Below, in pieces: positions 1-53,135 of a DNA stretch of 64,000 nucleotides. Both the position numbers and the translations under genes were made by a program. Location of the stretch: NCBI GenBank assembly GCA_039621445.1, contig CP154954.1, positions 24,254,954 through 24,318,953 of the forward strand. The letters are read 5' to 3'. Within the stretch, counting starts at the first letter, position 1. Every line of letters starts with the position of its first letter. Source of the stretch: Euglena gracilis (Eukaryota). Below the pieces are notes generated by a model. It worked only from the letters and a program-made list of their open reading frames with translations, did no database searches and was not told the DNA's origin.

Positions 1-164
1 CACCCGCACGACCCGGAGGAAGGGCTGGGGGGACTGTGGGGCTCCGCCTGGCTGACCGACCAGGCCCGGAGTGCCCCGCACCTCCCGTCCCGTGTTGGAC
101 GTTTGCCGCCCCTCCTCCTGCCCCACCCTGAACTGCCCACCCCTCAGCCCCTCGACCCGCTGCG

Positions 165-660
165 ATGGCAACCGCTCTGCTTCCTGGGGTTGTGCCTGAC
201 GCCAGACGAGGTCAGCAAGGGAATTAAGGGGGGGGGTGGCCGACTGTTACCAGACCACACTCTCCCCCAATCCTTTGGCAGTTTGGACTGTTCATGCACG
301 TATCAGGGGGGGGGGGGATGTGTTTCGCATTTTTTAACACATTTTTGCGCATTTTTTTCCCCTCAAAGCTGGGCTACCGCATTCCCCCAGCCGGCATGTA
401 TTTGAGCTTTGGGGCAATTGGAGGAAAGCAATTCGGGGCAGTGTTTCCCAGGCCGCAGCAAGAGGCCCTGTGCCCCCACCACACTCGTGCACCTTCCCTG
501 TGTTGCTTCGAAATGCTTCTCCAGCGACAAACCTGTCTTGTCTGCGCCGGTTGCCAACTCCTTGCATGGCAACAGCTTTCCATGTTCTTGTGGCACAGTC
601 AACCGTTCACTGCTGAAATGGGATTGGCCATCAACCCCATCTTGCCAGGCGGTCAACTGA
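165..660 (+). CDS. Possible two-exon small hypothetical gene (165-210 + 452-660; MATALLPGVVPDARRG/RSKRPCAPTT...QAVN*)
   Basis: C-rich tract and CAG at 145-147 before ATG 165. GT at 211 and CAG at 449-451 are phase-compatible, and the frame is open to TGA at 660. No homology recognised. Confidence 0.3.
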
Positions 661-698
661 TCTTTGGGTTTGACCGTCTTGGGTGCATGCAAATAATC

Positions 699-1117
699 TT
701 ACCCCCCCCCCAAAATAAGACCCCCCCAAAATAAGACCCCCCCTGGGCTGATCGAGCAAAAATCCAAAAATAAGACCCCCCCATAAATAAGACCCCTTGA
801 CGGTGCGAAGCGCCGGGGACGGTGAAAATTTTCCCTGAAAAATTACCAAAAACCCCAATTTCATTCACAAAAATGATGAAATTTCAAAAATTCTCAGATT
901 TTTGAAGTGCAAAAAACATGGTAAATGTCAAATTACACCAATTTACACATGGCGCGAAGCGCCGAAGGAAAATTTTTAGCACTCTTGGGAACCTCTTTGG
1001 GCCCGGGTCGGTCAAGAAAAAGTCCAAAAATAAGACCCCCCCCCCCCCAAAATAAGACCCCCCCCCCACCTGAAGGCTTCCAGCAACCGACCCAAAAATA
1101 AGACCCGGGTCACGGTA
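699..1117. mobile_element. AATAAGACCCCC-type MITE; related copies at ~10339-10690, ~13654-14058, ~18690-18860 (fragment) and ~20690-21050
   Basis: Shared internal sequence (e.g. catggtaaatgtcaa...ccaatttacacatggcgcgaagcgccgaagg) and repeated AATAAGACCC motifs across the copies. The copy at 699 ends ...cacggta. Confidence 0.75.
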
Positions 1118-1535
1118 CAGCTTTCATAACAGGTGTATGAAAGCTGTTCAAATACACAATTCCTGTGATCAGAGGAAAGTCCTACCAGAATGGAAGGCCT
1201 GATCAAATCAAGTATCATTAGTGTCATGCAATTTGACACTGTGGAAAATAGGAGAGTAATTTGTGGGATATTTGTTTGACAATAGTTTATATGTCATATA
1301 CATATTTTTCCGGGCATGCTTTTCGAAACAAGGCCTCTTTGATTGCTTTGTTTATGTCTTATTCAAACCATTTTCTTTCGAGTTTCTTTTCTTGTCGAAG
1401 GGTATTGTCGCTCTTACTGTGCGCGATTTCGTGCGAACTCGGCACAACTGCACTCAGCTAGTGGATGCACTTTTTTTTGCTACTGGTGGCTGCTGATTTT
1501 GTCAGTCTTTGTGTGCAGATGGTGCTACCCCCCAC

Positions 1536-1990
1536 CAGGGGGGGGGGAAATGCAACTTGCATAATTTGCATTTTTTTGCATAATCGGCTTTTCCCGAAAT
1601 TTGCATTTTTTTGCATTTTTTTGCATTTTGTTGCATAAAATATTTTCCCCGCAAAAATTTTTTGTGGTTGGTTGCCATATGTTTGATTTTTTTTGCATAT
1701 TTTTGCATTTTCTACATAAAATATTTTGCCCTGGAAAAAATTTTTGTTGTTGGTTGCCATATTTATGGATTTTTTTGCATTTTTTTTTTGCATTTTTTTG
1801 CATAAAATATTTTGCCCTGGAAAATTTTTTTGATCTTAGGCAGCAAAGCTCTGTTATATTCCAGCTTTTTCTCAGGTTTTTCATGCAATTTGCATTTTTT
1901 TTGCATTTTTTTGCATTTTTTTGCATTTTTTTTTGCATTTTTTTGACTTGCATAATTTGAAGGGCCCAGTTGCATTTCCCCCCCCCCCTG
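1536..1990. mobile_element. hAT-like MITE with CAG...CTG termini
   Basis: TIRs CAG(G)nAAATGCAACT and AGTTGCATTT(C)nCTG. Flanking direct repeat CCCCCAC (7 bp, or 8 bp allowing a homopolymer indel). Internal TTGCAT repeats. Confidence 0.8.
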
Positions 1991-1997
1991 CCCCCAC

Positions 1998-2076
1998 ACC
2001 CCAATTAGAAGCCCCCCGGGGACTCTATTCGGTCAGTCTGCAGAAAACCCAAAAGGAGGGGGGCTTCTAATTGGGT
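1998..2076. mobile_element. Very small TIR element (CCCAATTAGAAGCCCCCC / GGGGGGCTTCTAATTGGG)
   Basis: About 18-bp perfect inverted repeat. The same end motif recurs alone at ~5716-5745. Confidence 0.6.
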
Positions 2077-2137
2077 ACTCTTTGTCTAAAGGAAAAACCG
2101 TCGGCTGGCGGCCGATCCGGGGATCGAACGGGGTCCA

Positions 2138-5100
2138 CTTAGACGGCCGGGAATGCACTTTTCATTTTTGGTGGTTTTTTTGCGCACCTGCGCATTCTTT
2201 TGTGACCAAGTGTGCCGCCATCACTTGACGGGGCGGCGGACCCGTCAGCTGAAACGCCTGGTACCAAAATGGGTACCACTGCTTTCGACCCCCGGGTTTT
2301 TTTCTGGGCAAACCGACTTTTTTCGTTTTGAAAATGACGGTTTAGCACCTCCGCGGACCGAGGGAAAACCCCCGTCTGCCGAAGTAGGTGCGACACAAAA
2401 CGCTGTTTTACGAGGACGAACCCTCGTCAGGTGAAGGCGTTGTACCTGTCGCTGTCCCCCCCGTTTTGTGGTTCCGAGTGAATGCGCAGGTGCGCATTCA
2501 CCCCCCTCCCCGTCCCGGCCTTTTCCTGAAGTTTTGGACGGTTATTGTGGGGTGTGGGAAGGGGGTACCGTGGTCTCTGCGGTTTGAGTGGAGAGGAGGT
2601 TCTGTGCCCTGTGCTGGAAGCAGGGCACGAGGGGGCTCTGGCGACTGTTTGGTGTGTGCGTGTAGTCTGCATTCAGAGAGTGGTGGGGTGTGTGTGTTAA
2701 AATCAAGACCAGATGTCTGTAGGGGAGGGCTCGTTACCCTCCTCAGGCTGCCTGCTGTTTGCCATCCCTGCACTGCACCCCTCCTTGACACTTGCAGGCA
2801 CAGCATCCCTCCAGTGGCGCACGCAGTCTGCTCCGCATGTGCCTTCTCATGGGCACCACGGCACATCACCATGTGCGACCACCTGTGTTCAGGTCTGACG
2901 TTTGTGATGGGGTGCTGGGTATGGAATGGGGGGGGGGGGCTGGCTTGCACTCTTCTGTGTGTCACTGGTTTTAAAAGCTACGGAGCGGAGCCCCACTTCA
3001 ACCCTTTTTGCCACAGACAACACCCTCCAGAACAGCCCTCACAAACGATGTAAAATGGCTCCTCTCCGAGGTTGCATGAGGCTCAAGAATGCGCACGTGC
3101 GCACTCTTGAGGCCATTCCTTCGCTGGCTGGCTATGATTCTATCTGCAGGAGAGCAGGAGGGGAGCAGCGCTGGGCATCCACAAGAGTGCGCACCTGCGC
3201 ATTTCATGAGGGGGAGTGCGCAGGTGCGCATTCTCTGTGTTGTGGGGAGCTGTGTCTCGCACTCCTGAACCCAGTGCCAGCACAGCATTGTGGCAGGGTC
3301 ACCCCCATGGTGCACTGCTGGCCTTTTTGTGAGCGATTTCAGAGGCATCTCATTGCACAGGTGGATGCTGCCAGAGTAGGGTGAACGTCTCCTGGGCTGT
3401 GCCTCTACCTTGTGTGCTGAGTTGTTTGGCATGGCCTTGTACAGCAACCTCCTACCAGGGTGCTTTAAGGGGAGACACAAGAAGAGAATGCGATGTGCGC
3501 ATTCACCCCGATGTGCCATGTTTGACTGCAGCCATTGCGGATGCGGTGTGTGGAGAAAGTGTGTGCATATGTGCTTTCCCTGGTCTTCACAGCCGCCAGG
3601 GGTTGTGCAGTTTGCAGTGCTGGAGCGTCGACTCTGAGTACATGATAAAAAAGGGTTCTATGTGGTGGGTGACGTTTGTTGCCAACAAGGCCACAGGTGG
3701 TGGTCCTCCTCTGCCGTGTTTCGCTCCAGGGCTGCCTCGTTCTTGGACGCCATTGGATCCTCACAGGGAGGTCTGCACTTCAACCGTGTGGTTTCAAACC
3801 TATGCCATGCGGGGGGAGTTGGCGTGGGTGGTGGCATACCCACCTGGGAGCGCAAATATTCGACGGTGTGGCTGTCATTCAAAGAAAGGCACAGGACGAT
3901 TTTTTGCGCATGTGCGCATTCACCGTCTTTTCACTCATGCCATGAAAGACTGCTGACCACATTTGGGAATTAGGGTGCCCGTCACTGAATAATTTCCTCG
4001 GGCACTGAAGTCCCTTTCTCATCCGTTTTCCCTTGGTACGACACAGTGGAATACACAGAAAAAGCAGAACGGAAACAATTCCTGGGTTTATCGGCAAGTT
4101 TTTGTTGTGATGTGCTTGTGCCTGTCTCACGATCTCAAGGGCCTGGAGAAAATTTGGGGCAAGGACTGACCAGTGGTGTTCGCTTCTTTGAGTCGGTTTG
4201 GATTGTGAATTAATTCTGTGTTTACAGACCGTTTTTGGGAATGATGCCGAAGGTGGTGACAGGTGTGTTTCGCTCTCGAGGTGCCAACCCCGTGAGCACT
4301 GTGTGTGGAACCAGACACAACCCCCTGCGTTGACCCTAACTGTGGGGCACAGTGCTCCTGGCACCGTGCACTGCAGCCCAACATAAGGTTGTTCAGGGTG
4401 ACCATTGGCTGTGTGCTGCCATGCACGCTCTGGGGCGTGGGGTCGGACAACGCTGGCAGCAGCCTCCTATCACCTCCCCCAGGTGGTGGACGGTTGCATG
4501 TGCGTTGTGACTTGCTCCACACGTTCATCAGAGCAGTGTGACTCGGCTGGGCACTGGATGCAGCGGGTGAAGTGGAATGCGCAGGTGCGCATTCTGATTT
4601 GTTCGGTGACTTGCGCTGCAGGGGGTTAGTTCCCCTGTCACTGAAGGACATCAATTCGTGCTTTGACACCTGCCGTCGCCGAGCCCAGGGTTTTCGATGC
4701 TGCAGCAGGTGTTGTGTTTCAGGGTGTGGTCTGGTACAGCGACATGGTTGCCCAGGGTGATTCTGTTGGTTCATCTCCCCCTCACACACCCATGTTCCGC
4801 AAGCCCGAAACAACATCATAACGGTGCACAGCTCGCATTCAAGGCAGGCAAACAACAGGCCATACCCAGTGTGTCTTTCAACATCAATGCGCGTGTGCGC
4901 ATTCCCCCTTCCCATAGCCTGTGTCCATACCAAAGCAGCTGCGCATTCTTTTGGGTTCCCAAAAAATGCGCAGGTGCGCATTCTTCGGCCCTGATACTCA
5001 GTGACACCCCCATTGTTTTGACCTTGGGGGGGGCTGTGTCTCTGTGGCTGCAAGGTGTTCCCTCCCATGCTCATCCCAGGTTCACCAGGCCCTGCCCCCA

Positions 5101-5474
5101 GAAGCCATCAGCACCCATCGGTGAACACAAGGTGTCACACCCAGGCCCAGGCTTCCCTGCGTCGTCCGTGTTCCGCATGCTGTGTGGAGTGTGCCCACTG
5201 TGTGTCCAGCCACGCACTGTACCACAGTCGTCGTGAAACAGCTGTAAACAGCATGATACGTGGTCGAAGCAGAATACTGGGGGGTGGTTCCTGGGGTCGC
5301 GTTAAATCCAAACAGCTCATTTTTGTGGTGTTTACCCCCTGTCTGGAAGAGGCATCAAACCATGCAAAATGCGCACCTGCGCACTCCGCGTCCAAAATGC
5401 GCGGATGCGCATTTTCACTAAAACTGCCTAAATTTTGTGACTCAACAAGAAAAGTGCACTCCCGGCCATCTAAG
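2138..5474. mobile_element. 3.3 kb DNA-transposon-like element with 26-bp TIRs and 5-bp TSD; no intact transposase seen; superfamily unassigned
   Basis: CTTAGACGGCCGGGAATGCACTTTTC (2138-2163) matches the reverse complement of 5449-5474 at 24/26. GTCCA flanks both sides (2133-2137 and 5475-5479). Confidence 0.85.
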
Positions 5475-5880
5475 GTCCAAATTTAAAAGTTCGCAAGACG
5501 CATTTTTTCGAATTCTGGGTGGATAGGCCATGTTTCATGGAGACCAGATATCAATTTTTGTTCCCCTGTCGACCTGCTTTCGTAGAGTTTTTTCGAGTTT
5601 TTTACTATCGTTCGTAAAATTCTTGGTCAACTTTGTCGGCCGGCTTGGTCGGGGAGGAGCTGTTATTTGGATTTTTGAACCTGAGGGGGGTTCCATTTGG
5701 GGGAGTTGTCATTTGGGGGGGGGCTTCTAATTGGGGGGGGTTACGTTGTGGACATCGCGCCGTTGCCTTTCTGAATCGCCCTGGGAGGGCCACCCGCCAA
5801 CCGATTCCCCAGGTGCTTCCCCTCCACCCCCTGCCAAGCAAGGGTCCTGCTCACAGATTCACTTGACCTCTGTTTGCCTC

Positions 5881-6133
5881 CAGGGGTTTTTTTTAGTCGT
5901 GGACCCCCGGGGGGGTGGGTGGGTCCGGCCGAGCCCCCCCCCCCCGGGGTCCCCCCGGAGGGGGGTGGGATATACTTTTCGGCGCCAAAGGCGCCGAAAA
6001 AGTGCTATTTTTAGCACTTTTCGCGATTTTCGGCCATTTTTTTGTGGGTCCCACGGGACCCCCCCCCCCCGGGGGGGCCCCCCAGGGGGTGGGTGGGTGG
6101 GGGGGACCCCCGGGTCTTAAAAAAAAACCCCTA
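5881..6133. mobile_element. hAT-like MITE with 8-bp TSD
   Basis: TIRs CAGGGGTTTTTTTTA... and ...TAAAAAAAAACCCCTA. TTTGCCTC is duplicated at 5873-5880 and 6134-6141. Confidence 0.85.
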
Positions 6134-7725
6134 TTTGCCTCCCCCAGGGGGGGGGTGCTCTTGAGAGTGGGTGGGGTCATCGGGACCCCACACGGGTTGG
6201 CATGGAACCCACATGGGTCAATTCAGCTCGGCCTGGCTTGAATTTTTTCAAGGGTTTTTTTTTTGAAAAATTTTGGGGTTTTTTTGGTGTGGGGTCGTGA
6301 GTGAGTGGGTTGGGCTGGGGAAAAGTACCTCAAGGGGCCATTCAGTGAATCTACAGTCCTGCTGCCTTTCCATCTGCTGCCCTTGGCCAGGAACGGGGCG
6401 TGCATTGGGTTTTCATTCAGGACATGGGAATCCTCCAGGGAACACAGGGCAATCCTACAGGAGTTAGGTAACCTGTTTCATGGTCCCTCGTGATATTTTA
6501 TGGGGATAATTGTATCTCTTTTGGGCAGGGTTCACTGCATTATCAATAGCAACAAAGGCAACATATTCGTCGTTCTTCCGAACCTCAAAACAAAATGGTG
6601 GAAAATGATCTCCATTTCCGTTGCCATCTGCCCCCCCCCATGCCGCCCTGAATTTGTCACTGTGCAGTCAGTGATGCCTTGACCCTCCCTCCCGCCCTGT
6701 GCGTGACTCCTCCCTCTGACCTGTGGCTACCGATTGTTGGGCGGGCGCCTCCGTTGTGTTGCGCTGTAGACTGTCTCATTCTGATGGAGTCTGAGTGCCA
6801 ACCACTCACCACTTGGTGCCAAGGTGGTGGATTGGCGAAGAAAGGAGGCGCCAGTTCATAAACGCCATTAAGCAGGTCTTCCAAAGGCAATGCCTGGCGG
6901 GGGGGGGGGGGGCAATGAATGAATGCAATCGCACGTTGCAACGGCTGCCTCACTGTGTAGGACAAATCATCATCTGTGGCCCCCTCCATCAGCCCAGTGC
7001 TGTGTTTCTGGAGAGCTGAGTAGAAGGCCAGCCAGCTGGCAAAATAAACTTGCTTTTGCAGAAGTATCCGTGTTCGTAGACGGAATTCTGTGGAAATCTG
7101 AAGCAGTTACAAGCGGTTATTGCTGACTTGCAATCCAAAGATGTGTACGTGTCCGTCGAGGGGCCAGTGTTCTTCATGTGGTCGAACATTGTTTGCTGTG
7201 GTTTTCTCTCATTGTCAATGGAGACCCAAATTTTTGATTTTTGGGTACCCCCAAAGATTTTGGGCCGATTTTGGGACCCCCCCCCCCCAAATTGGGACCC
7301 CCCCCAAATTGGGACCCCCCCCCCAAATACAAAAACAAAACCCAACCTTGTTTGAAGAATTCCTTATTTCAACTCAGTTTTCTTCTGAGACAAAAAAGTG
7401 TGAATTGTCATTTTTGCATTTTTTTTGTCAAATTGCATTTTTTTTGCTAGTACAAGGGCAACCCCCCCCCCCGTCCGTGAGCTTGGCCCAGGGCATCGTT
7501 GAAGGTAAGGCCAGGGTGCCAACCTTAGGGGGGCCAAGTCTGCATGTTAAGAATTTTGGCGGCCATGTGCAAAAGGCGAAAGGCTAACTTTAGGGGGGCC
7601 GAGGTTGTATGAAAGGAGGAGGGGGGGCCAAGCGCCTTGGGGGGCCACCGGGCCTTCCCATACAGCCCCCCAGGGCGATTGCATACCGTTTCATTGTCCC
7701 CCGACCCTCCCCCCAGAGGCGCCCG

Positions 7726-7892
7726 ATGGGCTGTGCCACCTCGTGCCCCAACGCCCCCGGCCCTGCGGAGGCCCCCCCGGCCCCCCCGGTCGCTGGCCCC
7801 CCGGCCGGGCCCAACCCCACCACGCGGCCCCGCCTCCCGACCCGGCGCGGCACCGAGGGAGGCGCCCAGAGACCGGAAGAGAGCAGAGGCCG
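7726..7892 (+). CDS. Gene A exon 1 (MGCATSCPNAPGP...), hypothetical protein with an N-terminal acylation-like motif
   Basis: Pyrimidine tract and CAG at 7714-7716, then ATG 7726. GC-rich codons. GT donor at 7893 is phase-compatible with the next exon. Confidence 0.6.
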
Positions 7893-7995
7893 GTGGGGGT
7901 GACTGTGCGGGAGAAAGCCGGGCGACCCCGCGGGGGACCGGCGCGGTTGGCGCCGGGCTGTGAATTGTTGCTGGCCTGCCTCCCCCGGCGTGCAG

Positions 7996-8137
7996 TCCGC
8001 CGACCTTGGCCTCGGTCCCTGGCCACAGCTCCGGCGACCCCGTCCTTTGCTGGCGCGCCTCCGCCCTGCGTGGGCGATCAACGAAGCGCCGCCCCGCCTC
8101 GTTCGACGAGCTGGCGCAGGTGGAGGTGCCCTCTCCC
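7996..8137 (+). CDS. Gene A exon 2 (PPTLASVPGHSSGDPVLCWRASALRGRSTKRRPASFDELAQVEVPSP)
   Basis: CAG acceptor at 7993-7995 and a strongly GC3-biased frame. The 3' end depends on which intron model is correct. Confidence 0.65.
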
Positions 8138-9484
8138 GGCCAGGCATTTGGGCCGCGTGTGGGCAAGACCCTCTTTGCCCCCCAGGGATCATTTTCAAGG
8201 CGATTTTTCCTTCTTCAAAATGTTAAGGCTAAGGCATTTTTAAGGCTTTTTTAAGGCGCTGTTTTCCAGAACGGTCAAGGGGCTGTCTGGGCATCGAACC
8301 AACGTTTTCGAGCAAAACAAAAAGTCAAAAAAAAACACATTTTTTTGAGTTTGGTAGGATAAACAATGTCTCAGCGACGCCAAAGATCGTTTTTCCCCCA
8401 GAGTTCTCCTGTTTTTGCCCAGGTTTTGCTTTTTTCTTTTTTTCTCGGTCGGAGAAATTTGTTCCTGCCAAAAATTTAAGGAATGTTAAGACATTTTGGT
8501 CAAAAAGAATTAAGGCCCATCTTAAGGCATTTGAATGCGTTTTTTAGGCGTCTGAAAAATGCCGTCCCACCCCAATTTAATTTGGATTCCCTCCCCCAAT
8601 GCTTTGCGTATATTTTAGGGGAAGGCTGTTTCCTTTCATTGAAGGTCGGCCGCTGTGGTGAGTTTGGTTGCCAAGAGCTTTGGCAAACAAGCTCGCGCTC
8701 AGTGTCATGGTAAATGCGAGGTTCTTGGTTGGACAAGTTTCATTCACAAGCACATTTCACAAGCAAAATGCTGCATTTCATTACTCGATTTAAAGACCAG
8801 GGAGGTGAAGTGTTCTTAAATTCTTTTCAAAAAAATGCAACCTTTCGCATTCCATCTGCACAATCACATTCCAAAAATAATACTTTTGGCGTTTTAATAT
8901 TTTCTGAGATTTCTGGTGTAAAACGTAATTTTTTTGTGTTTGACAGGCCACCTGCTTGTGCTTGCGACCAAGAGAGTTCTTTTTCCAATGTCTTAATTTA
9001 TATTTTTTAACGCATTTTCATCCTTGCGCGGCTTTGCAAATGCCCCATTAAACAAAGTTTCAAAAGTCAGTAGTGCATAATTTTTGGGATTAGGGCCCTT
9101 TCCCAAAGTTTTATCTACCTGTGTTTTTTGTTTGTGTATCACACAAAATTGTTCAAGAATGCTTTTTCAAAATAATTTTTCAAATGGAAATGAAGTTCAA
9201 AAGGAACTTCAACAGTTTGTTTGTTTTATGGAAGAGCCACATGCACGGCGCTGACACAGATGCAGAAATGAGTGCGGGATCACAAGGATGACTCATCCCG
9301 ATGCGGCGTTTCATTTCGAGTTTTTCCCCGGTGCGTTTTTGTGCTGTGTTGAAACTGAAACAGCTTTCGCGCTGCAGCAGAAATTCTTTTTCGAATTATT
9401 GGCTTTTTGGGACTTTCCGTTTCCAACAAACCTTTAGTGGTTGTGCTTTTGAGTGTGCGTGCGTGCGGCACGGCTGCCTGCCCC
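8138..9484 (+). other. Candidate non-conventional (non GT-AG) euglenid-type intron
   Basis: Starts GGCCAGGCA (CAG at +4) and ends TGCCTGCCCC|A. 8141-8165 can pair with 9456-9480 at 22/25 positions including G-U. Removal keeps the frame. Confidence 0.6.
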
Positions 9485-9652
9485 ATCAACCTCCGCCTGG
9501 TGTGCCAGGAGGAGGAGAGGATCCATTCCCCGGCGACCCAGGGTCCCCCTCCTCCAAAGGAGCAGCGGAAAGCCGTCTCTTTTGTCCTCCCTGCGGAGCC
9601 CGGGCTCCACCGCACCAAGAGGTGCCGCGACCTCCCGTTCGCCTTTGCCAAG
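9485..9652 (+). CDS. Gene A exon 3 (INLRLVCQEEERIHSP...RKAVSFVLPAEPGLHRTKRCRDLPFAFAK)
   Basis: GC3-biased frame continuous with exon 2; GT at 9653. Contains KAVSF, an RVxF-like motif. Confidence 0.6.
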
Positions 9653-10202
9653 GTTGCTGCCGTGGGCTTTGCTGCCATAAACCCTGGGAATTATCTCTCT
9701 GATTGAGTTTCTAAGTGTCTAAGTTTTTGGGCCCCCTTTGCTGGTTTTCTTTTGGCACGCCTTGGGAGGTTATTGAAGTATTGAAGTATGGTGATTTGAT
9801 TGTGGACAGAATGGCCAAACTTCACTCCATCCGACGTTGCGCTGTTCTTTCCCCCTCTTTGTTCAAATTAATTATGCAGCATCTTTGATCATATGCACCC
9901 ATCGTATGCCGAAGCCTGAAAGAACGTACCATTAGAAATTGTGAGAAGTGTCAAAACTGTCATTTGTGGTCATTGTGTATTCCTATGACCGATTGTGCTG
10001 TGCTTTCTGGACCCTGGGCACAGGGTTTCTTCCTGACCCTGTCTGAGTTGCACTTGGGACGGGTAAGCAGTGCGCCCCCCCCCCCCCGTTACACAAAGCA
10101 TTCTTGTCTGCTTATGGCCAGCGCCAACTTCACTTCTGGCCCAGTTTGTGTGGTGGTGGCAGTACCCCCCCCCCGGGACCCCCCCCCCCCCCGGTGCCCC
10201 AG

Positions 10203-10283
10203 CAGAGGCCACCCACCTCCGCTGCGGTGCATGTCCCGCAGAACTGGGCCGAACCCCGACTGCTGCCCCACGCCAGCCACATC
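10203..10283 (+). CDS. Gene A probable exon 4 (QRPPTSAAVHVPQNWAEPRLLPHASHI)
   Basis: Phase-0 CAG acceptors at 10200-10205 and GC3 bias. The 3' border abuts a repeat starting CAGGCCATAC and is uncertain. Confidence 0.4.
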
Positions 10284-10769
10284 GTCCCAGGCCATACAGT
10301 TGCTAGACCATTGCCAGTGTGCGCTACACCATGGGTCATTAACCCCCCCAAAATAAGACCCCCCCCCCCCGGGCCGATCGAGCAAAAATACAGACCCCCC
10401 AAAAATAAGATCCCCCTGACCCGAAGCACCGAAGGCGGTGAAAATTTTACTTGAAAAGTTACCAAAAAACCCCCAAGAATGATGAAATTTCGCACAAAAA
10501 ATGATGAAATTTTTGAAGTGTAAAAAACATGCTAAATGTCAGCTCTCACCAATTTACACATGGTGCGGAGCGCCAAAGGAAAAATTTTAATGCTTTTGGG
10601 AACCTAAAAATGATTTTTTTTTCCGGGCCCGGGTCGGTCATAACCCCCCCCCCCCTGGAGGTTTCCAGCAATGTTGGGCTCGTTTTTGACTTGGGCTGCC
10701 GCCTTTCCCATCGGGCACTGTGGTTTCCCCAGGGTAGGGTGCACGCGATTGACGGACCACCCTCTGGTC

Positions 10770-10865
10770 GTGCGAGTCAGCCCCCCGCCACCGGTAGCAA
10801 GTGGATGCCCCGCCTGCACTGCCCTCGACGGCTTCACGCTGCCGCGAGTGCAGTGTTTCCTCTGA
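10770..10865 (+). CDS. Gene A possible terminal exon (VRVSPPPPVASGCPACTALDGFTLPRVQCFL*)
   Basis: GC-rich open frame to TGA at 10863-10865. The 5' border and the frame are both ambiguous. Confidence 0.25.
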   Translation: MRVSPPPPVASGCPACTALDGFTLPRVQCFL

Positions 10866-12121
10866 GGAGGCCTTGGCCGCTGGCTGGCTGGCTGGCCCGG
10901 GCTATGACCCCCGTTCCCTGCTTCAGGGGAACCTCCATCCCCTTGCCACCTCCAGGCCAAGCACCTCCAGCGACAAATCCTGACGATTTTGCCAAGGTGT
11001 TCGCAGCAGGGAAGAGACTGGATTATGCCGCACCCAACCCAACAAATGACGAATCACAACTAATCAAGACTGAGCCTAAATTTACATCAAAAGAAAGGAG
11101 GGATGAAGAATGTTCCTTTTTTGATAACGATTTGACACCGCTTGTCCAAAACCTTTTGGATTTGCAGTTTCTGCAGTTTCTGTCAGTCTGTCTCGTGCTT
11201 TTTTCCCTAAGAGTGTTGTTTCTTTTCTCTTCACTGGCATTTCTGTGTGGTTCTTTGAATGGACCCGTCCTGTTTCTGTGGGAGTGTTACCCCCCCCCCC
11301 CTCAAACTCAAATCAGCCCCCAAAATCCTACATTGTTCACCGTCAGGGCTGTTTGCCTTTCTGGCGTGAAAACGTATCCCCCAAAAGTTAGCCCTCAAAC
11401 CATGGCTCAAGCAAAGCCTGGGGAGGGTTGGCTGACTTCAAGCCCTGGCACTGAACCAGACCTTTCTTTGTCCCTCCTGGGTTGTTGGAGATTGGTTGGT
11501 GGTTTTGTGTCGTTTGGCAAAAGACCGGACTGTCAATTCCGTTTTACGATTTTAATGTTGTGGGTCGGCAGGGTGGGTAAATCAGACTTCTTTTAAACTC
11601 AGAAGACCCCCCCCCCCCCGGAGGGGTTGGGCTGTCCAGGGCTGGACTCCCCCACGTGGGGTTCCCGCACCAGGCTGGGTGGGTGGATGGGACCTCCCCT
11701 GTTTATATCTGCACAGTTCCGTAAGTTTGCATCCGCCAAAGTTCTTGACACATCGGAGATGCATGTTATGTCTGCCCTCTCACCCTGATTGTGCCTCCAC
11801 TCCCCCAGTGGACGTTGGGGATGCACCCCACCTGCACCCAATTTGCTGGGAGGCAACTCTCAGCGGTGGCATATGTTTTGTGCTGTTCTGGCACTTCAAG
11901 CTTTTGCTGCCTCAACCGCAGCTGTAACCATAAGTGCAGAATCAAGCCCCGTTCACCAGGTCAGGCAAAACAGGTGTCAGCCTCCTGGGCTGCCTCCCTC
12001 CCCCACCCCGCCATGGACACAGGCTGTATTTTTTTGAGGTGGTGTTGGGACCACAGGGTTCCGCTTCACGTCTCTTTAGTCACCATTGTCCCACACCAGC
12101 ACACCAGGGTTTGTCCCCGGG

Positions 12122-12275
12122 AAACAGCGTTTCGTGTCGCATCTACTTCCCCCGGTGGGCGGAGGTGGTAAACCGTCATTTTCAAAATGGGAAAAGTCGA
12201 TTTGCCCAGAAAAAAAGCCCGGGGGTCGAAAGAAATGACAACTTCGGTACCACCGGATTTCAACTGATGGTGCTC
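12122..12275 (-). repeat. Inverted diverged copy of ~2240-2408
   Basis: aacagcgtttcgtgtcgcatctacttc...aaaccgtcattttcaaaa...cccgggggtcgaaag is the reverse complement of sequence inside the 2138-5474 element. Confidence 0.75.
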
Positions 12276-13601
12276 CCACCACTGGTGACTAGCAACGTGC
12301 TTGCTTCCGGCCCCCGAACCGCTTTCTGTCCCAGTTCCGCCTCTGCCCCCCCAACCACATCTGCCTCTTCCGTCTCTGGACGGAGAGAGGTGTGTGCCCC
12401 CCCCCCCCAGCCCCCGATTGACGTGCCCCCCTCTGTCACTCATGACAGCATGACAAGTACGTCAAGGTTCCGACCAGGCTGCAGTTTAATGTGAGGTCGA
12501 CCCCATCCAGGGGGGCTGGTGGGCAGGCACTCCGACACCCACACCGACACCCGGGGGGGGGTTGGACATATGGCCTTGGTTGTGCCAGAGCCGCCAAGAA
12601 TAAATAATGTATTTTTGGGCAAATTTCCACTTAAACCTAGGCAGGCACGACCCCCCTCCCGAAAGTAGTTCCTGTGCTATTGAGGCTCCCCCTCCCGTGG
12701 GGTTGGTCAAGTTCAGCCTGACTCCAACAGCCAGTGGGCCGCTCATCGGTTGTGTGTGTTCAGCGGTTGGACAGGTCCTTGGTGGGGAAGGAACCCACTT
12801 GCAAACCAGCCCCACTTACAACTCCCCCTATTTATTTGTTTAACCCCCCTCGGGCCGACAAACCAAACTTTGGCTCATAATCTCCCCCAGGGGAAAAAAA
12901 AGAAAGACGCCGGGGATGATTTTTGGGTCGCAACACCCCCAAAACCATTTTTTTTTACGTGACCGCATGCATTCTCCGGACATTAACCACCCCCAAAATG
13001 GCCGTTTTGGGGCACAAATCCTAGCTGGAACATCGGCAACCAAAACGGCGTATGGAGGGCGACATCTTGTGGAATATAGCCTCTCCAGGGACACACTTGG
13101 TTTGGCATACACTTTCGGAAATAATGTAAAAAACATAATGGAAAAAATGATTTTTTGGACCGAAAATCTCACCCCGGTGTAATGTCGAGTGGAAACTGGG
13201 GGGGGGGTTGGCTAATCCTACTCAGTTTGGGTCCGTTATCGGCTGAACAACTCAGGCCTGGCGGGGAGTTGGGTCGGAAAGCCAGGATCCAGTCGTTCAC
13301 GGCGGGAAAAAAATTCCGGGCACAGGCCATGGTGATAATCCACAGACCTACACCCCTTTCCCCAGAGGCGAGCTCTGCTCTTACTCTGAAGGTGGAGGGG
13401 GAAATATGCAAGTTTGCATAATTTACATTCTTTGCATAATCTAAATCTTAAAAATTTGCGCTGTTTTGCATGGTTTGCATTTTTGTCGCATTTTAATAAA
13501 AAGTCGCATTTTTTTTTGCGTTTTTCTGTATTTTTTTGTGTATCCAGGTATGCCCATGTTTGTTGTTGCATTTTGCACATGCAAATTGCTCCACTTTCAG
13601 A

Positions 13602-14206
13602 CAGGCCATACAATTGCTAGACCATTGCCAGTGTGCGTTACACCATGGGTCATTACCCCCCCCCCCCCAAAATAAGACCCCCCCCCCCTGGGCCGATCGA
13701 GCAAAAATCCAAAAGTAAGACCCCCCCAAAATAAGATCCCCCTGACCCGAAGTGCCGAAGGCGGTGAAAATTTTCCTTGAAAAGCTACCAAAAAAACACC
13801 CAATTTCGCACAAAAAATGGTGAAATTTCAAACATTTTCGGATTTTGAAGTGTAACAAACATGCTAAATGTCAGCTCTCACCAATTTACACATGGTGCGA
13901 AGCGCCAAAGGAAAATTTTTAATGCTTTTGGGAACCTAAAAAATAATTTTTTTTCGGTCGGTCAAGAAAAAAATCCAAAAATAGGACCCCCCCCTGGAGG
14001 TTTCCAGCAACGGACCCAAAAATAAGACCCGGGTTTTATTTTTGTGGGGGGGTTTACACCATGGGTGGGCGAATGCCTGAGTGTTCCCCTTATCAGGGTC
14101 CCTCCCCGAGACAAAGGCAGAAAAGTATGTTGGGCTCTTTTTTTGACTTGGTCTGCCGCCTTTCCCATGGGGCACTGTGGCTTCCCCAGGGTAGGGTGCA
14201 CGCGAT
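13602..14206 (+). repeat. Diverged direct copy of 10288-10749 (MITE plus its flanks)
   Basis: Both copies start caggccataca.ttgctagaccattgccagtgtgcg and end gggcactgtgg.ttccccagggtagggtgcacgcgat. Confidence 0.85.
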
Positions 14207-17200
14207 GCTCTTTGGGTGTAAATGTTCTCATTTACACCGCTCGTTCTTTTTCTCAGACAGGGTTTTATTTCTTTCATTCATTTTAACTCATTGGGCGTCG
14301 TGGCTGTGAGCAGTCCAGATCGCCCCTCTGCTGGTTCAGCGTTTTGTGTTGGGTTAAATTGTGTCCGCATCGATGCTGTTGCCTGGAATACGCCCAACTG
14401 CTGTGTTTCCAGCCGCCCCATACACCCCTGCAGAAACCCCGGCGTAACTAACGCACGTCGCCTCACCTTAGACCTATACCGCTCCTCGCAGCGACGCTTG
14501 CTGCCCCCTGCATGACGTCCCGTCTGTGGTTGGGGGCAGGGGTCCTGCACCAGTATATGGGTGACATGCTCGTCCCTCATATTCATTCTTCAATGCCCCG
14601 CGCACGTCATGTCCCTCATGTGCCCAACTTCCACTTTCAGTTGCCCATTCGTTTGAAGTTCTCTTGTTGACCGACAGCACAACTGGTGTCTGGTGTGGTG
14701 CTTTCATGAATTGTGCAGGATCCAATCACGCAAAACCACAACCTCATACCCTTCCGATGCACAACATGAATCACGATATTGTTTGAGATTGTTCAGCTGC
14801 AATAATTTAATATTCAGGTCAGCAAGGATTCCTCTTTTGGAAGTCTCTGAGGCAAGCCTTCCCTCCCAAGGAGATTGAATTTACAAAAAGTTTGGCCAAA
14901 TTTCTTAGTGCAGGTTTTTTCCCGCTTGTCAGATTTTGGGGTTAGGGGTGTCCTCACCAACCCCTCCACCCCTCCTTTCCCTCAGGGAGGGGGTTTACTC
15001 CCTGACAAAGGGCGGGAGGGGGGATATGCGGAGCGCATACTTTCCGCATATTCCGCATTTTAGCGCATCACTTTTTTTGGCCAAAAAGCGCAAATTTCGC
15101 TTATTTTGCACATATTCAGCACATATTCCGAGGGTTGTCAGGATTTTCCCGCTGTGTATTTTCTTCGTTCCCACATATATTTTTTTGCTTATTTTCTGCA
15201 TCTCATTGGGCCATGTTGATTTTATTCAAACCATTTTATGCCATTTGCTCTCATTTTGGGGCCATTTTTGGCCCTTTTTTTTGCCAATTTTGGCCCATTT
15301 TGGTCCATTCTGAGCCACAGGGGCCCTGTTTGAGTCGTTTTCACCACTGTTGGCCATTTTTGGTCATTTTTGGCCATTGCTGGCAATTGTTTTTTCAGCT
15401 CAAAGTGGACAAAATTGGTCCAAAATGGTCCCAGAATGGCCCGAATGGCTCGAAATGGTCATAAATGGTCCGTAAATGGTCTAGACCCGGGGGGGGGGGT
15501 TCTGGAGCCAAAAACCAGCCACTATGAAAAAGCAGTTAATCATCCCCCGGGGAAACACACCTCAAGCAATGATATGGAACCTGCTCCCTCCCCCCCGAAG
15601 GCCAGCTTTTTCCAGCCAGCAGCTCCCAGCCGGGCTGAGGACCTCCCCCGGGTCCTATAAAATAAAATTCAGGCCAGCCCGACGAAGCTGTGCTGGAAGA
15701 CACGCAGGGTGGGTGGGGGATGGGATCCCAATGGCGTGGCAAACGTGCCAAAATGAAAGTGCCCCAAAAAGGTGAAACGCCGGACCAAAGGTAATAAAAT
15801 ATTTACATTTGGCATTGTTGGGGAAAGGGCCACCTTCTGGATGGTTTTTTCTGGAGGTTTAAGGAGTTTGGTCTTTTCAGACCCCTTTGCAGGGGGGATA
15901 TGCGCCAAAAGGTGTGCGTTAAAATATGTGGGAATATGCGCTAAACATTAGGAAATTATGCGGAAAATATGCGATTTTTCGAAAATCAGGCCATATTTGG
16001 CTTGTTCAGGTGATCCAATCAGCAAGTCATTTCAACCCATTATGGATCATTTTAGGACCATTTCTGTCCATATCTGGCCACAATCGGCTGTTTTCGAACG
16101 GTACCATTTTACCATTTTTGGCCGAGTGGCCAAAGTGACCGACCCTCTCCCCCCGGGGGGGAGGAAGTGGGTGAATGGTGTTTTTGAAAGTGGGAAGGAA
16201 GAAGTATATAGGCAATGGTATGGTAGGGTCCCCTCTATCCAAGCACTTTCGATGCAGGGCGATGCAAGAATATTGGAGGCCAAAGGTGGGGTTCCAATGC
16301 AGGGCAATGCAGGCATTTTTTTGGCTATCGTTGAACATTTTCCAGTGATTCGCCGCATTGGCGGCTTTTTTTAGCCTGGTTTTTTTTAAGGCACTGACTT
16401 TTGGCATTTTTTGGGGGGGGGTGATTTTTGGCCGTTTTTTTGGACATTTTTGGCCCATTTTGACAATTTGACCATTTCTCCATTCTGCAAGGCTTCATGC
16501 TGTCATGTGATTCAGCCAGCGGATGCGGGTATTGGAGTGGATGCGGAATGATGGCATGCGGGAATTGGAACGGATGCGGACTGTTGACACTTGAGCAAAT
16601 GCGGGGATGTGGCTACCGGATGCGGCTTCTGGAGCAGGTGCAGCTACATGGCTGGATGCCAGCCAAGTCGGGATGCGGGTACTGGAGAGATGCGGAAATG
16701 CATGTACTCCAGCATATGGGGGTCAAAATCAGCCAAAAGTGGCCAAAAGTGGCCAAAAGTGGCCAAAAGTAGCACAAAAGGCCAAAGTGGCAAAAAGCAG
16801 CAGAAAGAAACAGGGCACCATTTGAGCATTTCAAAGGCGATGCGGGGCGCTGCAGGGCGATGCGGGACCCAAAGGGGTGGGTGACCGAAGGCTTATGAAA
16901 ACCCCTGGCAGCCTCATAAAATTTTTTCGTGCAAAGAGCCGCAGCCCGTGGGACCCCCGGGTCCTTAAGAAGAAAATAACAACAACAAAACTACCTCAGG
17001 CTGCTTCAGGCGTTGCTCTGACTGGTGTTCTTGGTTGCTTCCTCCTGCCCGCCCCCCCCCACTCCTTCAGGTTCCAAGTCTGCCTCTGAGGAGAGGGAGA
17101 CTGGACGACCTCGGTTGTGTTTCTTCCCCAGCACCAGAAGGATCCTCCTTGTCACTTGTTCCGTGGCTGTTGCCCCGCGGAGCGGCACGTGAGGCCCCCC

Positions 17201-19379
17201 AGCACTCTTCTGCCCTGCAGCGAAGCAACCTCCCTCCTCACGCCGGGTTACATATGGCCAAGCCCTTCCCGGGCGAGGAGTTGGGTGAGCCGAGGACATA
17301 TTGGATGAAGGTCAGCCAGATCCTGGTTCGACAGGAGGGTGTTGGGGATTGGGGGGGGGGTCCCTGCCCTTGGCCAGGGAATCAGCCAAACAGCCAGGCC
17401 TGGGAGCACCAATTTTTGACCCCAAAAATTTTTCCTGGCGCTTTGGGTGCCTGGTGAAAATCAGTGAAATGCTGTGGTGGGTGGGGGGGGTCGACCCCCC
17501 CACCGTTCTTTCCCGTTCTGCGCTGCCCTTGACCATCGTGGGTCCAGACCATCCCACCTGCCAGGAGCCCATTTCCTGGGGCAGGCCCTCTGAACATTTT
17601 CCAGCATGCCACGCTGGCCGGTGTGGGTCTTAGGTTGGCGTATGCCTTTTATTTCAGGGATGTTCATTCGGATCTCCAGGATGATGCCTCTCAAACCAGG
17701 AGAATGATGCTACTGACTGGAAAATGGTCCACACAGGGCAGGGTTTAAACACCACATACAGGGCACCCCACTCCCAGTGGGAAGGGGTCTAACCAGCAGC
17801 CTTTTTCCACCCCTGGTCCCCGACACTATTTTACAGCCATCTCACGATGATGATGATAATAATGATAATACTTTTTTGAAGTAATCATGAAGAATACTAG
17901 AATTGCCCCTGTTCATAACTTCTTTTGTGTTTTATGTAGTCCTCGCTTAAGGGATAAGAGCCCCCCACCACAGTTGAGAAAGAGGGGGTACAAGTGGATA
18001 TTTCCCACCGTCAATGGAGAGGGGGGTGGCCTTGGGGGGCAATACCAGCCGAGGCCAGAGGTCTGTCCCCCCAAGGGGGGAGTCCAGTCACGTACATGTA
18101 CAAAAAAGGACAGAGGCAGACTGTGGGCCCTGGCGTTCGGTCACAGTGGCCAACGTGGTTCTGGACCCACTCTTTCAAATGTTTCGCTTTGCACCGACAA
18201 TCTTTCGATTCGGCTCGTCAGGCTGCAAACCTTCACCTTGAAGGATAGCCTTGGATGGACTTGTCTGGCTGGGCGCGTTGCGCCTTACCTCTCTCTTATC
18301 AGATCCATTCTTGTTTGACTGAGTTGTATGGTGCGCGCTTCTGCCATCACTGCGCATGCGCTGGCTGAAATCAGTTTCCAAAGAGAGGTCAGAATTGTAT
18401 TTTTGGGTTTTTTTTGGTGTTTTGCTCAAGAAACCTAATGATCCTTTGCGTGTTGGCCCCTTCTTGGGACAATTTTGGGAGCAAGCCGAACGTTGGTTTG
18501 CTCAAGGTCCCGTCAACCTTTTCAAACCACTGGCTGCCAGCTTTTTTACGTGGAAACAGATAGACAGCAGGGGAATTGTGCAAAAAAAAACACCCCAAAA
18601 TACTCCCCTGAAGCGCTGGGTATGGGTTCAATTTTCACTGAAAAATCACCCCAAACCCCAATTTCAGATGCAAAAATGATGAAAATTTGAAGGTTGCAGA
18701 TTTTGAAGTACAAAAAAAAAACATGCTGAATGTCAACTTACTCCGATTAACACACGGCACGAAGCGCCGAAGGAAAGATCTTGGAACCTGAAAAGTGGTG
18801 TGTGATGTTTTTTCGGGTTTTTTTTCTGGGCCTGGGTCGGTCAAAAAATAAGACCAGGTTTTGTGCAGTTCTAAGCTCTTCACGTGTGTGATGGTGCCAT
18901 GCTGCAGCAAATGTTTGATGCGTGCGGCAGATGTTTGAGGCGGTCGGTGGCCCAGTGCCCGGCCCGGTGGCCTATCCTGGCCGGCAGCCCAGCTGGCGGC
19001 CGGTGGCCCGGCAGCCCGGCCCAGCCCAGGAAATGGCTGAAAAATGGCCGTGACTCGGGCTACACAAAGATTTGGTGGAAAAAGTGAAGCATGGTTGGAT
19101 TTGGCATTCCAAGGGATTTAATTATTTTTGAAGCCTGTTTCTGAAGCCTGTTTCATCAGCAATACAATGCACCAAGTTGCAGAGCCCAGCTCCTCGGGGT
19201 TCCTGACTTGTGGCACATTTTTTCTTACCACCACATACAGCCAAGCACAAGGTTACATTGGTTTCGGTCGGGCAAAAATTAGGCAACCTCGTAAAGATTT
19301 TTGGACCAGTGCGTCGTAAAGATTTTGCCGTCAAGGACAGGGGGGTCCCCCCGGTCCTCTCAGAAACGTCTGTGTTGCG

Positions 19380-19991
19380 TGCTCTGCTATTGTGGAAACG
19401 CCGACGAGTGCCATGATTGCGGCGCCCCCTGATTGTGGAAGTGGCTACGCGGCCAGGCTCCTGTGTCTAAAACAGGGCTTAAAATGACTTCCCAACCCTT
19501 GTTAATCCTTGTCAATAACACTTTCGGGAATATTGCTGTGTCTCGGACAAGGGCTGGGTGGGAATGTAAAATGAAATAACTGGCTGAATTAATTGTAATA
19601 CATAGGTATTGTCATGAGTGGCAAAAATGGCACGAAACTCGGAACACAACGTGTCGAGCATTCACAAAGATTGCTTTTTGCAGCTTCGTGTTTTTTTAAT
19701 CAAATTCTTCCGACAATGTAATGATTTTGTACAAAAACAGCAATTGTGGTGTAATCATCGTTGATTCTATCCTTCTTTGTAGTGCGTGCTTTCAAAAAAA
19801 GTCTCCTGAAAAATGGGTGTTTTGAAAATCGCTCCAGAGTTTTTGAATTTGAAAAAATTTTGGTGGAAACAGCCCAAGGGTGTGAAAATGGGTGTCTGCA
19901 CCCGACCCCTCTGGCTGCAATGCCATGGAGGTTCCAGCGTGTCGTCCATGTTGGCCCCTCCTGTAGCTCTGCAGTGACTCATGCAGCGCCG
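19380..19991 (+). repeat. Segment present three times (also within 31617-32671 and 34654-35700)
   Basis: Near-identical text from tgctctgctattgtggaaacgccgacg onward. The other two copies carry ~450 bp extra between ...tttgaattt and ...tggtggaaac. Confidence 0.9.
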
Positions 19992-20333
19992 TGCCCCACT
20001 TCCTCGCCCCTCCCGATGCGTAGGTTTGCGCTGGTTGGCATTGCTTGCCAACCTGCTCGCAGGCTGTATCGGCCCGCCTTTTGGAGGTTCTTTTCTTTGG
20101 GTATTGTGGAAATGGGCTTTCTGGGCTTCTGGCATCTTCAGGGCCGAAGGCGCCTTGGCCAGGGGTTTTCTTAAGCCGGAGGGTACCATCCCCGGGGGGG
20201 GTCCAGCCAGCCAGCAGCTCAAATCCAGCCAGCAGCCTAAATTCGGGCTGGGAGCCCCCCCCCCCCCGGGGTCGAGTGAAATAAAGTTGGGTTCCAGCCC
20301 AGAAGCTGTACACTTTTCCCACGGGGCGGGCTG

Positions 20334-29261: not shown

Positions 29262-29263
29262 TA

Positions 29264-42916: not shown

Positions 42917-42987
42917 GCGGCCTGGACCGGCAGTTCGTGTGGCGCCTCATCCAGAAGCACCCGCTGGCCCTCACCGCCAACCTGTAG
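42917..42987 (+). CDS. Gene B terminal exon ((R)GLDRQFVWRLIQKHPLALTANL*)
   Basis: All codons end in G or C; TAG at 42985-42987; in frame after intron removal. Confidence 0.7.
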
Positions 42988-49837: not shown

Positions 49838-50430
49838 GTGGGTGGCTTTCAGAGAAGCCAAGGAATCGTATCCAACAGGTGGTTTAAACGCTTCCACAAA
49901 TCCCCACTCTCCTGCATGCGTTTTTTTTTTTTTGCTTCTGATCCACTTGGAGTGCATTTCGCTGGGTGCCCAAGTGGTGCATGAGTGGACCAGAGGCATC
50001 CCTGGGAACGTGGGAACCAAATTTTTGCAGCACACCAGCAACTTTTTCTGCCACAGTGGTTGTGGTACAAGAATTTTTTGTCCTGCTGCAGTGCTGAATA
50101 AAATATTCAATGCAATGAATGAGAATGAGAAGGCGCGGCACAGACTTTCAAATTTGCCGCAGCAATGCAGCACACAAGGAAAATTCTACCGCGGCGCAGC
50201 CGGCTCCAAAAGGAATTCTTTCGCTGTGACAGGCGCCAAGCAAAATTATCCTTGGCAAAATGCAGTGGTTTTGGGCCATTTTGGGCGGAGTGGGTCGGAA
50301 ATGACTGATTGTGTTCCAAAAAAAATGACACATCGGTTTTTCGAACTCCACATGGTGGATGCAGCCGAGCCGGCAGCGTTTGTGGCGTTGAGCTGGCTCA
50401 CTTTTGGGTTCATGGGTTGCAGGCACCTAC

Positions 50431-50560
50431 GGCCGACCAGGGCCCACCAGGGCCGACCAGGGCCGACTATGATTTTCAGGACCCCCGTAGGTGGGGGTTC
50501 TGACCAGGGCCGACCAGGGCCGACCAGGGCCGACCAGGGCCGACCAGGGCCGACCAGGGC
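50431..50560. repeat. 10-bp tandem repeat (GGCCGACCAG)n; a second 10-bp repeat (GATGCTGGGY)n lies at ~50640-50755
   Basis: Read directly from the sequence. Confidence 0.85.
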
Positions 50561-52949: not shown

Positions 52950-53056
52950 GTAAGGGACGGTATTTTTTATATATATTTTTTTAGTTAACGACCACCCCCT
53001 TAAGGACCCCCCCCCCCCCAATACACAGAAAGGCCCCTACACCACCGGTTTTTTTC

Positions 53057-53090: not shown

Positions 53091-53135
<45 letters not shown>

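Follow-up and report, generated by a model that had tools for sequence, protein, structure and literature searches.

In a stretch of 64,000 nucleotides of Euglena gracilis DNA (assembly GCA_039621445.1, contig CP154954.1, positions 24,254,954 to 24,318,953 of the forward strand), hereafter the window, we found terminal inverted repeat (TIR) elements that have CAG...CTG ends and 8-bp flanking duplications and lie near RNA-proven introns of the same layout. The origin of the nonconventional introns of euglenids and the mechanism of their removal have been in question since the 1990s, and the window supplies concrete candidates. On balance, we are inclined to think that MITEs (miniature transposable elements with inverted repeats) of the hAT type share the shape of nonconventional introns, and that most of those introns go back to old insertions in which the duplication and the inverted repeat have decayed. 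The CAG...CTG elements with 8-bp duplications support, but do not prove, such a transposon origin.

The splice rule deduced from knock-ins (PMC12501133) consists of a 3-nt spacer and CAG at the 5' side, and CTG and a 5-nt spacer at the 3' side, followed by a purine. According to the same paper, the length of the 5' spacer is strict, the 3' spacer tolerates one extra base, and changing CTG to CTA abolished splicing, so that the intron was retained. A previous sequence-only reading of the window had argued that splicing an insertion at +4/-8 removes exactly one 8-bp duplication of the target site (TSD), and this arithmetic was right and matches the published rule (PMC12501133): because 3 + 5 = 8, the length of the duplication, a CAG...CTG element with an 8-bp duplication would be removed without a scar. 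In the mechanism that we propose, a hAT-type transposase would cut its target with an 8-bp stagger at insertion, producing the duplication, and the element would then be transcribed inside an exon and its inverted repeat would fold in the transcript. A probably non-spliceosomal activity would then join the exons after cutting at 3 nt upstream and 5 nt downstream of the stem, removing the element plus 8 nt, that is, one copy of the duplication, and restoring the message to the letter; with later mutation, the duplication would erode and only the first few pairs of the stem would be left. By analogy, this cut geometry would recall RNA endonucleases that are guided by structure, the tRNA splicing enzyme being an example.

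Two candidate elements, named MITE1 and MITE2, had been pointed out in the first part of the window, and their components are as follows (no strand is assigned unless one is given).
1536 to 1990: MITE1, 455 nt, with terminal inverted repeats of 22 nt, CAGGGGGGGGGG(G)AAATGCAACT.
1529 to 1535: left copy of the MITE1 duplication, CCCCCAC; taken as 8 nt from 1528, CCCCCCAC.
1991 to 1997: right copy of the MITE1 duplication, CCCCCAC.
13394 to 13543, plus strand: degenerate MITE1-like fragment, 74-75% identity, with no intact CAG end.
5881 to 6133: MITE2, 253 nt, with ends CAGGGGTTTTTTTT ... AAAAAAAAACCCCTA.
5873 to 5880: left copy of the MITE2 duplication, TTTGCCTC.
6134 to 6141: right copy of the MITE2 duplication, TTTGCCTC.
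63904 to 64000, plus strand: left end of a second MITE2 copy, aligned in 93 columns with positions 1-86 of MITE2 at 84% identity.

The exact 8-bp TSD reported for MITE2 was verified, as TTTGCCTC stands on both sides and the flanks 5873-5880 and 6134-6141 are identical at 8 of 8 positions. The MITE2 inverted repeat (CAGGGG/TAGGGG) reads CAGGGGTTTTTTTT at the left end and, reverse-complemented, TAGGGGTTTTTTTTT at the right end, the outermost bases forming a C/T mismatch like the one printed for Ac/Ds ends (PMC3260210). The boundary of the element was placed at the C of CAG because the copy at 63904, which runs to the window edge, keeps the same CAG end next to an unrelated left flank. Four sequencing runs were compared with positions 1-20000 only: X21 and X24, which are raw RNA; X15, a contig set that turned out to contain spliced RNA; and X1, composed of DNA contigs. 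A single-copy DNA contig of X1 has its start inside MITE2, at 6107 and 27 nt from the right end, as expected of a 31-mer assembly passing from unique DNA into a repeat. The 7-8-bp TSD claimed for MITE1 proved fair: its flanks, CCCCCCAC and CCCCCACA, share an exact 7-mer and agree at 5 of 8 positions when compared position by position, and the duplication reaches 8 nt only on the assumption that the C-run has lost one base. One side of the MITE1 inverted repeat has an extra G, and the interior of the element contains many subterminal TTTGCAT repeats near both ends and an 82-nt tandem at 1605-1832. In the minimum-energy RNA fold, the MITE1 ends form a 20-bp stem. Contigs of X1 join 1575 to 1906 (1575>1906) and 1580 to 1891 (1580>1891), which points to shorter members of the family. 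A 31-mer scan of metagenomes for further MITE1 copies produced 0 matches; the 22-nt end alone had 1 match in metagenomes (L001), with no element around it and in unrelated sequence, and it was rejected as chance. Next to MITE1, 16 nt past its right end, there is a 64-nt element (2006-2069) made up almost entirely of a 12-15-nt inverted repeat, (AAT)TAGAAGCCCCCC ... GGGGGGCTTCTA(ATT).

Four further elements were recognized in the window, again with no strand assigned.
50420 to 51234: E4, 815 nt, CAG...CTG ends, inverted repeat CAGGCACCTACGG, flanks alike at 6 of 8 positions.
51982 to 52289 (51974 to 52297 with duplications): E5, 308 nt, 17-nt inverted repeat GGACCCCCCTGATCCAA.
52939 to 54765 (52931 to 54773 with duplications): E3, 1827 nt, ends CAGGGCGGTCCGTAAGG / CAGGGCGGTCCTTAAGG.
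61248 to 61604 (61240 to 61612 with duplications): E6, 357 nt, CAT...ATG ends, inverted repeat matching at 14 of 17 positions.

E3 has CAG...CTG ends and an exact 8-bp duplication, TGGTTGGC, on each side. Exact 8-bp duplications also flank E6 (CCCCTGAC) and E5 (AATTTTTT, of low complexity), the latter lacking a CAG end. Within E3, a third, diverged E3 left end was observed at 54457-54476, 309 nt before the right end; E3 may thus consist of a short element combined with DNA that it captured. The frequency of such flanking repeats was evaluated in a census of YAG...CTR pairs in which 12 or more of 14 bases are complementary and the spacing is 40-3000 nt, tandem arrays being excluded. The longest exact flanking direct repeat was 0 nt in 30 of the 50 pairs, 1 nt in 5, 2 nt in 12, 7 nt in 1 and 8 nt in 2, no pair having a repeat of 3-6 nt. 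Random 8-mer pairs drawn from the window were identical with P = 1.45e-4, about 10 times the rate of random sequence, and 30 dinucleotide shuffles yielded a mean of 0.5 pairs per window when any inverted repeat (at least 10 of 12, whatever its sequence) with an exact 8-mer flank was accepted. The flanking duplications are real. Scanning the window for short-stem CAG...CTG pairs with exact 8-mer flanks added no candidates, none of the elements had GT...AG ends, and no convincing coding frame appeared among the open reading frames (ORFs) obtained by deleting each element together with 8 nt. Searches of the window with Rfam, at the gathering threshold, and ARAGORN found nothing.

From their ends and duplications, we infer that MITE1 and MITE2 are putative non-autonomous DNA transposons of the hAT type (MITEs). 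Elements of the hAT type are marked by the motif YARNG at their termini and by 8-bp duplications (PMC3014272), and the ends of Ac/Ds, which also make 8-bp duplications, are printed as C/TAGGGATGAAA ... TTTCATCCCTA (PMC3260210). MITE1 and E3 have CAGGG at both ends and MITE2 has CAGGG and TAGGG, while E5 (GGACC) and E6 (CATAC) do not conform to YARNG. The 8-bp duplication is exact at MITE2, E3, E5 and E6, and at MITE1 it measures 7 nt, which becomes 8 if a slip of 1 nt is allowed. P elements, which we take to make 8-bp duplications as well and to start with CATG, may suit E6 (61248-61604) better. Repetition with unrelated flanks was found in the second MITE2 copy at 63904 and in the high DNA depth of the region: over 668-6670, the summed word depth in X1, which is not a copy number, ranged from 143,026 to 749,212 per bin, compared to 59-112 for single contigs on the unique flanks. 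This shows heavy repetition of the MITE1/MITE2 region in genome DNA. Ac/Ds-type elements such as maize Ds1 resemble the window elements in their length of a few hundred bp, their short C/TAGGG inverted repeats and their 8-bp duplication (PMC3260210, PMC3014272), and also in being non-coding, in having many copies and in their subterminal short repeats, which the TTTGCAT repeats of MITE1 recall (PMC3260210). Unlike Ac/Ds, the window elements are known from sequence, with putative mobility and a euglenid-type protist as host; they share no sequence with Ac/Ds past the first five bases, and no cognate transposase was found in the window.

At least five joints were present in RNA runs (X21, X24 or X15) but not in the DNA run X1, namely 173>464, 14604>17201, 17254>18266, 18350>19414 and 19449>19903, and all of them were non-GT-AG. 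Taken with the CAG...CTG stems, these joints point to a host of euglenid type. Intron boundaries were reported with their sliding range, and slid positions were allowed when fitting the splice rule. The RNA-defined introns, all of them on the plus strand, are listed below.
174 to 463: GCT + CTGCTTCCTGGG ... CCCAGGCCGCAG + CAAGA, then G (CTG...CAG); stem 10 of 12; flanks 4 of 8.
14605 to 17200: read as 14611-17200, GTC + CCTCATGTGCC ... GGCACGTGAGG + CCCCCC; stem 10 of 11; 3' spacer of 6 nt.
17257 to 18267 (reported as 17255-18265, slidable by 4): GCC + AAG ... CTT + GTCTG, then G; flanks 5 of 8.
18351 to 19413: no terminal stem at the rule positions on either strand.
19451 to 19903 (reported as 19450-19902, slidable by 2): GGC + CAG ... 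CTG + CACCC, then G; flanks 5 of 8.

The last of these joints (19449>19903) was supported by 41 reads in X21. Three of the five introns fit the splice rule, with a paired triplet at +4..+6 and -8..-6 and then a G, and a fourth (14605-17200) fits it if six extra RNA letters are counted as exon. These six letters, TGTTAT, were observed in the RNA at joint 14604-17201 and are absent from the DNA on either side and from the intron, the adjoining DNA reading CGTCAT, which differs at 2 of 6 places; they may reflect an allele or paralogue difference, or imprecise joining. Flank identity was measured as the agreement of the 8 nt outside the terminal stem on each side, with a null drawn within the window. 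The five introns scored 4, 2, 5, 3 and 5 identities out of 8, which adds up to 19 of 40 against a null mean of 2.01 each (P = 0.003), and the three that clearly fit the rule were alike at 14 of 24 positions (P = 0.001). The flank likeness of these introns exceeds chance, with 2-5 of 8 identities kept in each. These introns are single- or low-copy, unlike the repeated MITE families.

Some further features of this transcribed region were observed. The spliced exons of 14300-20300 contain no long frame on either strand, and the transcript may be non-coding or incompletely defined. A transcribed segment carrying a CAG...CTG intron occurs in three copies of about 97% identity (19380-19991, 31617-32671 and 34654-35628; also at 39867). 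The two distal copies (31617-32671 and 34654-35628) have an extra 441-443 nt inside the intron, with neither an inverted repeat nor a duplication, and the RNA reads with loose ends at 19380 derive from those distal copies.

Whether the elements themselves would be spliced can be read from the same rule. The 3 + 5 layout with adjoining pairing is found in MITE1, E3 and E4 on both strands, and also in an intron predicted earlier.
41155 to 42916, plus strand: predicted intron, from sequence only, TCC + CAGAGGG ... CCCTCTG + CCGCC, then G.
The description previously given for this interval, a CAG...CTG paired segment with 3 nt on the left and 5 nt on the right, was confirmed in the sequence. Its stem has 7 + 4 pairs, its flanks agree at 3 of 8 positions, and upon joining them a short frame stays open to the TAG at 42985-42987. 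When proteins of 42-137 aa, the length range covered, were searched with the exon upstream of 41155, there were 231 candidates that shared words with it but no hit at E <= 0.001, and 41155-42916 is an intron by prediction. The base that follows the 3' spacer is A (plus strand) and G (minus strand) in MITE1, G and C in E3, and C and A in MITE2. The full rule (CAG, CTG, then a purine) is thus present in MITE1 on both strands and in E3 and E4 on the plus strand, and by this rule MITE1 and E3 should be spliceable. The MITE2 copy at 5881-6133 should not be, because its ends are CTA/TAG and the published CTG-to-CTA mutant was left unspliced.

Published introns provided a second source of evidence. 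The nonconventional introns of euglenids, gapC intron 4 among them, are like the window elements in having a CAG...CTG or another paired triplet at +4..+6/-8..-6 with pairing just inside it, a purine as the first base past the 3' cut and junctions that carry direct repeats (PMC12501133, PMC4770533). By contrast, the DNA that holds MITE1 and MITE2 is rich in repeats and yields very little RNA, and MITE2 ends in CTA. Junction direct repeats were reported in 84.4% of E. agilis introns (PMC12501133); we estimate roughly that chance would make about 44% of introns slidable. The gapC intron 4 was described as present only in E. agilis ACOI 323 and absent from other strains, with 'eight nucleotide direct repeats' that its authors read as a result of break repair (PMC4770533). 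In Table S3 of that paper, the intron is given as GTCCC/aac cattaccttg ... caaggtatg gtccc/AAC, where we use the slash for the cut. The 8-mer abuts the inverted repeat and the cuts split it 5 to 3, as the transposon model predicts. We also counted by hand the supplementary table of PMC4770533, including, of its 78 rows, the 43 typed N, which belong to 10 intron positions, and excluding the 35 with the types C, C/I?, I/N? and C/I/N?. The mean flank identity was 3.1 of 8, with per-position means of 3.3, 3.2, 1.5, 4.0, 2.0, 1.6, 1.75, 3.5, 4.2 and 8.0; six positions averaged 3.2 to 8.0 and four 1.5 to 2.0. In Table S2 of the same paper, hsp90 intron 9 of E. agilis ACOI 2970 (2343 nt) has, after a 3-nt spacer, CAGGGGTTTTTT as its first 12 letters, equal to the start of MITE2; the other end of that intron has no A-run, and we note the match as a lead only.

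The proposal that hAT-like MITEs are ready-made introns stood in part. It is favoured by the additional CAG...CTG elements with exact 8-bp duplications, by RNA introns of the same layout and by the 5 to 3 split of gapC intron 4; against it, MITE2 ends in CTA/TAG and the RNA-defined introns fall outside the MITE families. The following observations weigh against our interpretation, the strongest of them being that so far not one intron has turned out to belong to a MITE family. In the 15 joints listed of 487 (RNA and DNA runs, positions 1-20000), no RNA joint coincided with the ends of MITE1 or MITE2, where RNA is present at a depth of about 1-3 reads that stem from a repeat. The five RNA-defined introns showed no likeness to MITE1, MITE2 or E3, and the one at 18351-19413 has no stem where the rule places it. 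The likeness of the intron flanks mostly adjoins the cut sites, and the cutting enzyme's preference for certain sequences could account for it instead of ancestry. MITE2 departs from the layout on both strands (CAG...CTA on the plus, TAG...CTG on the minus), with a pyrimidine after the plus-strand 3' spacer, and its ends are unpaired in the minimum-energy RNA fold. Two elements with 8-bp duplications start otherwise than with CAG, E5 with GGA and E6 with CAT. A transposase was sought with Pfam in 140 ORFs of at least 125 aa in the window and in 15 ORFs inside E3, with 0 families in both cases, and because of this the elements are taken to be non-autonomous. Comparison of paralogues in the window gave 32 candidate gaps, most of them in tandem arrays, without any filled-versus-empty pair, and three clean indels (14011-14126, 20738-21177 and 32090-32530) had neither an inverted repeat nor a duplication. 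It should also be considered that rows of the published table at one intron position are orthologues and hence non-independent, so the effective sample of that hand count is 10. As for the DNA, none of the 15 joints skipped exactly one element.

Some of these observations would be accommodated if the elements were ordinary hAT-type MITEs whose likeness to introns is coincidental, the stem and the 3/5 offsets being structural features and the introns arising in another way, for instance as filler DNA at double-strand-break repair. We regard this explanation as unlikely, yet it is the alternative that deserves most attention. Filler-DNA repair also leaves short direct repeats, and a break-repair mark is how the authors of PMC4770533 interpreted the 8-nt repeat of gapC intron 4. 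CAG ends with 8-bp duplications are moreover generic traits of hAT elements in many genomes without such introns (PMC3260210, PMC3014272), the RNA-defined introns are not members of the window families, the paralogue indels lack duplications, and 4 of the 10 positions in our hand count stand at chance flank identity. Coincidence would nevertheless have to bring together three features at once: termini that read CAG...CTG, base pairing immediately within these termini, and offsets whose total is exactly the length of the duplication. Break repair predicts neither that the gapC 8-mer abuts the inverted repeat nor that it is split 5 to 3, and in the RNA-defined introns the likeness of the flanks exceeds what chance would give (P = 0.003).

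The direction of descent could also be the reverse, with introns or their circular RNAs being mobile and the intergenic CAG...CTG elements being copies of introns that re-entered the DNA. Excised nonconventional introns have been reported as circular RNAs (PMC11282704), strain-specific intron gains are on record (PMC4770533), and the Pfam search of the window ORFs found no transposase. We consider this route improbable, since an 8-bp duplication, ends of the YARNG type and an outermost base that is C on one side and T on the other are printed hallmarks of hAT cut-and-paste elements, and the subterminal TTTGCAT repeats of MITE1 resemble the transposase-binding repeats of Ds (PMC3260210). Furthermore, MITE2, which ends in CTA and is unspliceable by rule, has a perfect duplication all the same, and the element families reside at very high depth in untranscribed, repeat-rich DNA. 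Finally, that the duplications are chance matches or assembly artefacts of homopolymer- and repeat-rich sequence is scarcely credible, for in spite of the C-run at the MITE1 flanks, whose copies differ by one base, the low-complexity E5 duplication AATTTTTT and the tenfold excess of matching 8-mer pairs in the window, the duplications TTTGCCTC, TGGTTGGC and CCCCTGAC are not of low complexity, flank repeats between 2 and 7 nt do not occur, the shuffles produce 0.5 pairs per window for any end sequence, and an independent DNA run passes from single-copy to repeated within 27 nt of the MITE2 right end.

Returning to the descent of nonconventional introns from hAT-type insertions, its general form is already in print (PMC3935182, PMC12501133, PMC11282704). 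A MITE-like insertion as intron source was proposed in 2014 in PMC3935182, which states that no transposable elements were then identified in euglenids. The review PMC11282704 terms CAG/CTG a TIR and the junction repeats TSD-like, and describes a pyrimidine/purine consensus at both cut sites. In the full-text literature within our scope, which left subscription papers and bioRxiv supplements outside, we found no euglenid MITE families with CAG...CTG ends, no hAT assignment and no argument that 3 + 5 equals the duplication length. Among the closest known systems are the introner elements of Micromonas, Aureococcus and dinoflagellates, which are MITE-like, carry inverted repeats and target duplications and become introns on insertion; in their splicing, the element plus one copy of the duplication is removed, with one cut inside the duplication (PMC11282704). 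Introners differ in using the spliceosome, GT/GC-AG sites and 3-5-nt duplications (PMC11282704), whereas the introns of the window have non-GT-AG cuts (5 of 5 RNA joints) and the proposed 8-bp duplication would be split 5 to 3, at a distance set from the RNA stem.

If the hAT origin is true, young introns would carry an 8-mer repeat split 5 to 3, the sliding of their boundaries would be bounded by -5 and +3, and a MITE inserted in an exon would be removed scarlessly. A precedent in maize reportedly exists in the work of Giroux et al. from 1994, where a Ds element (hAT) in an exon is said to have been removed from the transcript as a new intron, by cryptic spliceosomal sites and usually imprecisely. 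The hAT origin would also explain the junction direct repeats of about 84% of E. agilis introns (PMC12501133) and the pyrimidine/purine consensus at both cut sites (PMC11282704), and it would constitute a second, spliceosome-independent case of genome-scale intron making by transposons. A bolder extension, which we advance only tentatively, is that the nonconventional introns of Euglena genomes, several hundred thousand in number, are for the most part fossils of TIR transposons, chiefly hAT-like ones, that made 8-bp duplications, that the non-spliceosomal machinery measures 3 + 5 nt because their sum is the transposase stagger, which would clear each exonic insertion of this one superfamily from the message scarlessly, and that an RNA-level 'undo', evolved by the host or borrowed from the transposon, let the elements flood genes.

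Other repeats were observed in the window. Between MITE1 and MITE2, at 2487-5379, a hairpin motif, GAATGCGCAGGTGCGCATTC, occurs at least 6 times in both orientations and at very high DNA depth, forming a separate repeat family. GC-rich (CCGGC)n-like arrays together with a 161-163-nt tandem family, in both orientations, occupy 21586-23700, 28341-30905 and 33533-33964, with inverted arms of 361 nt at 28390-28750 and 30344-30704. At 37069-38348, 67 copies of a 19-nt unit, CATCATGGGTCATGATGGC, form an array that is self-complementary over more than 500 nt.

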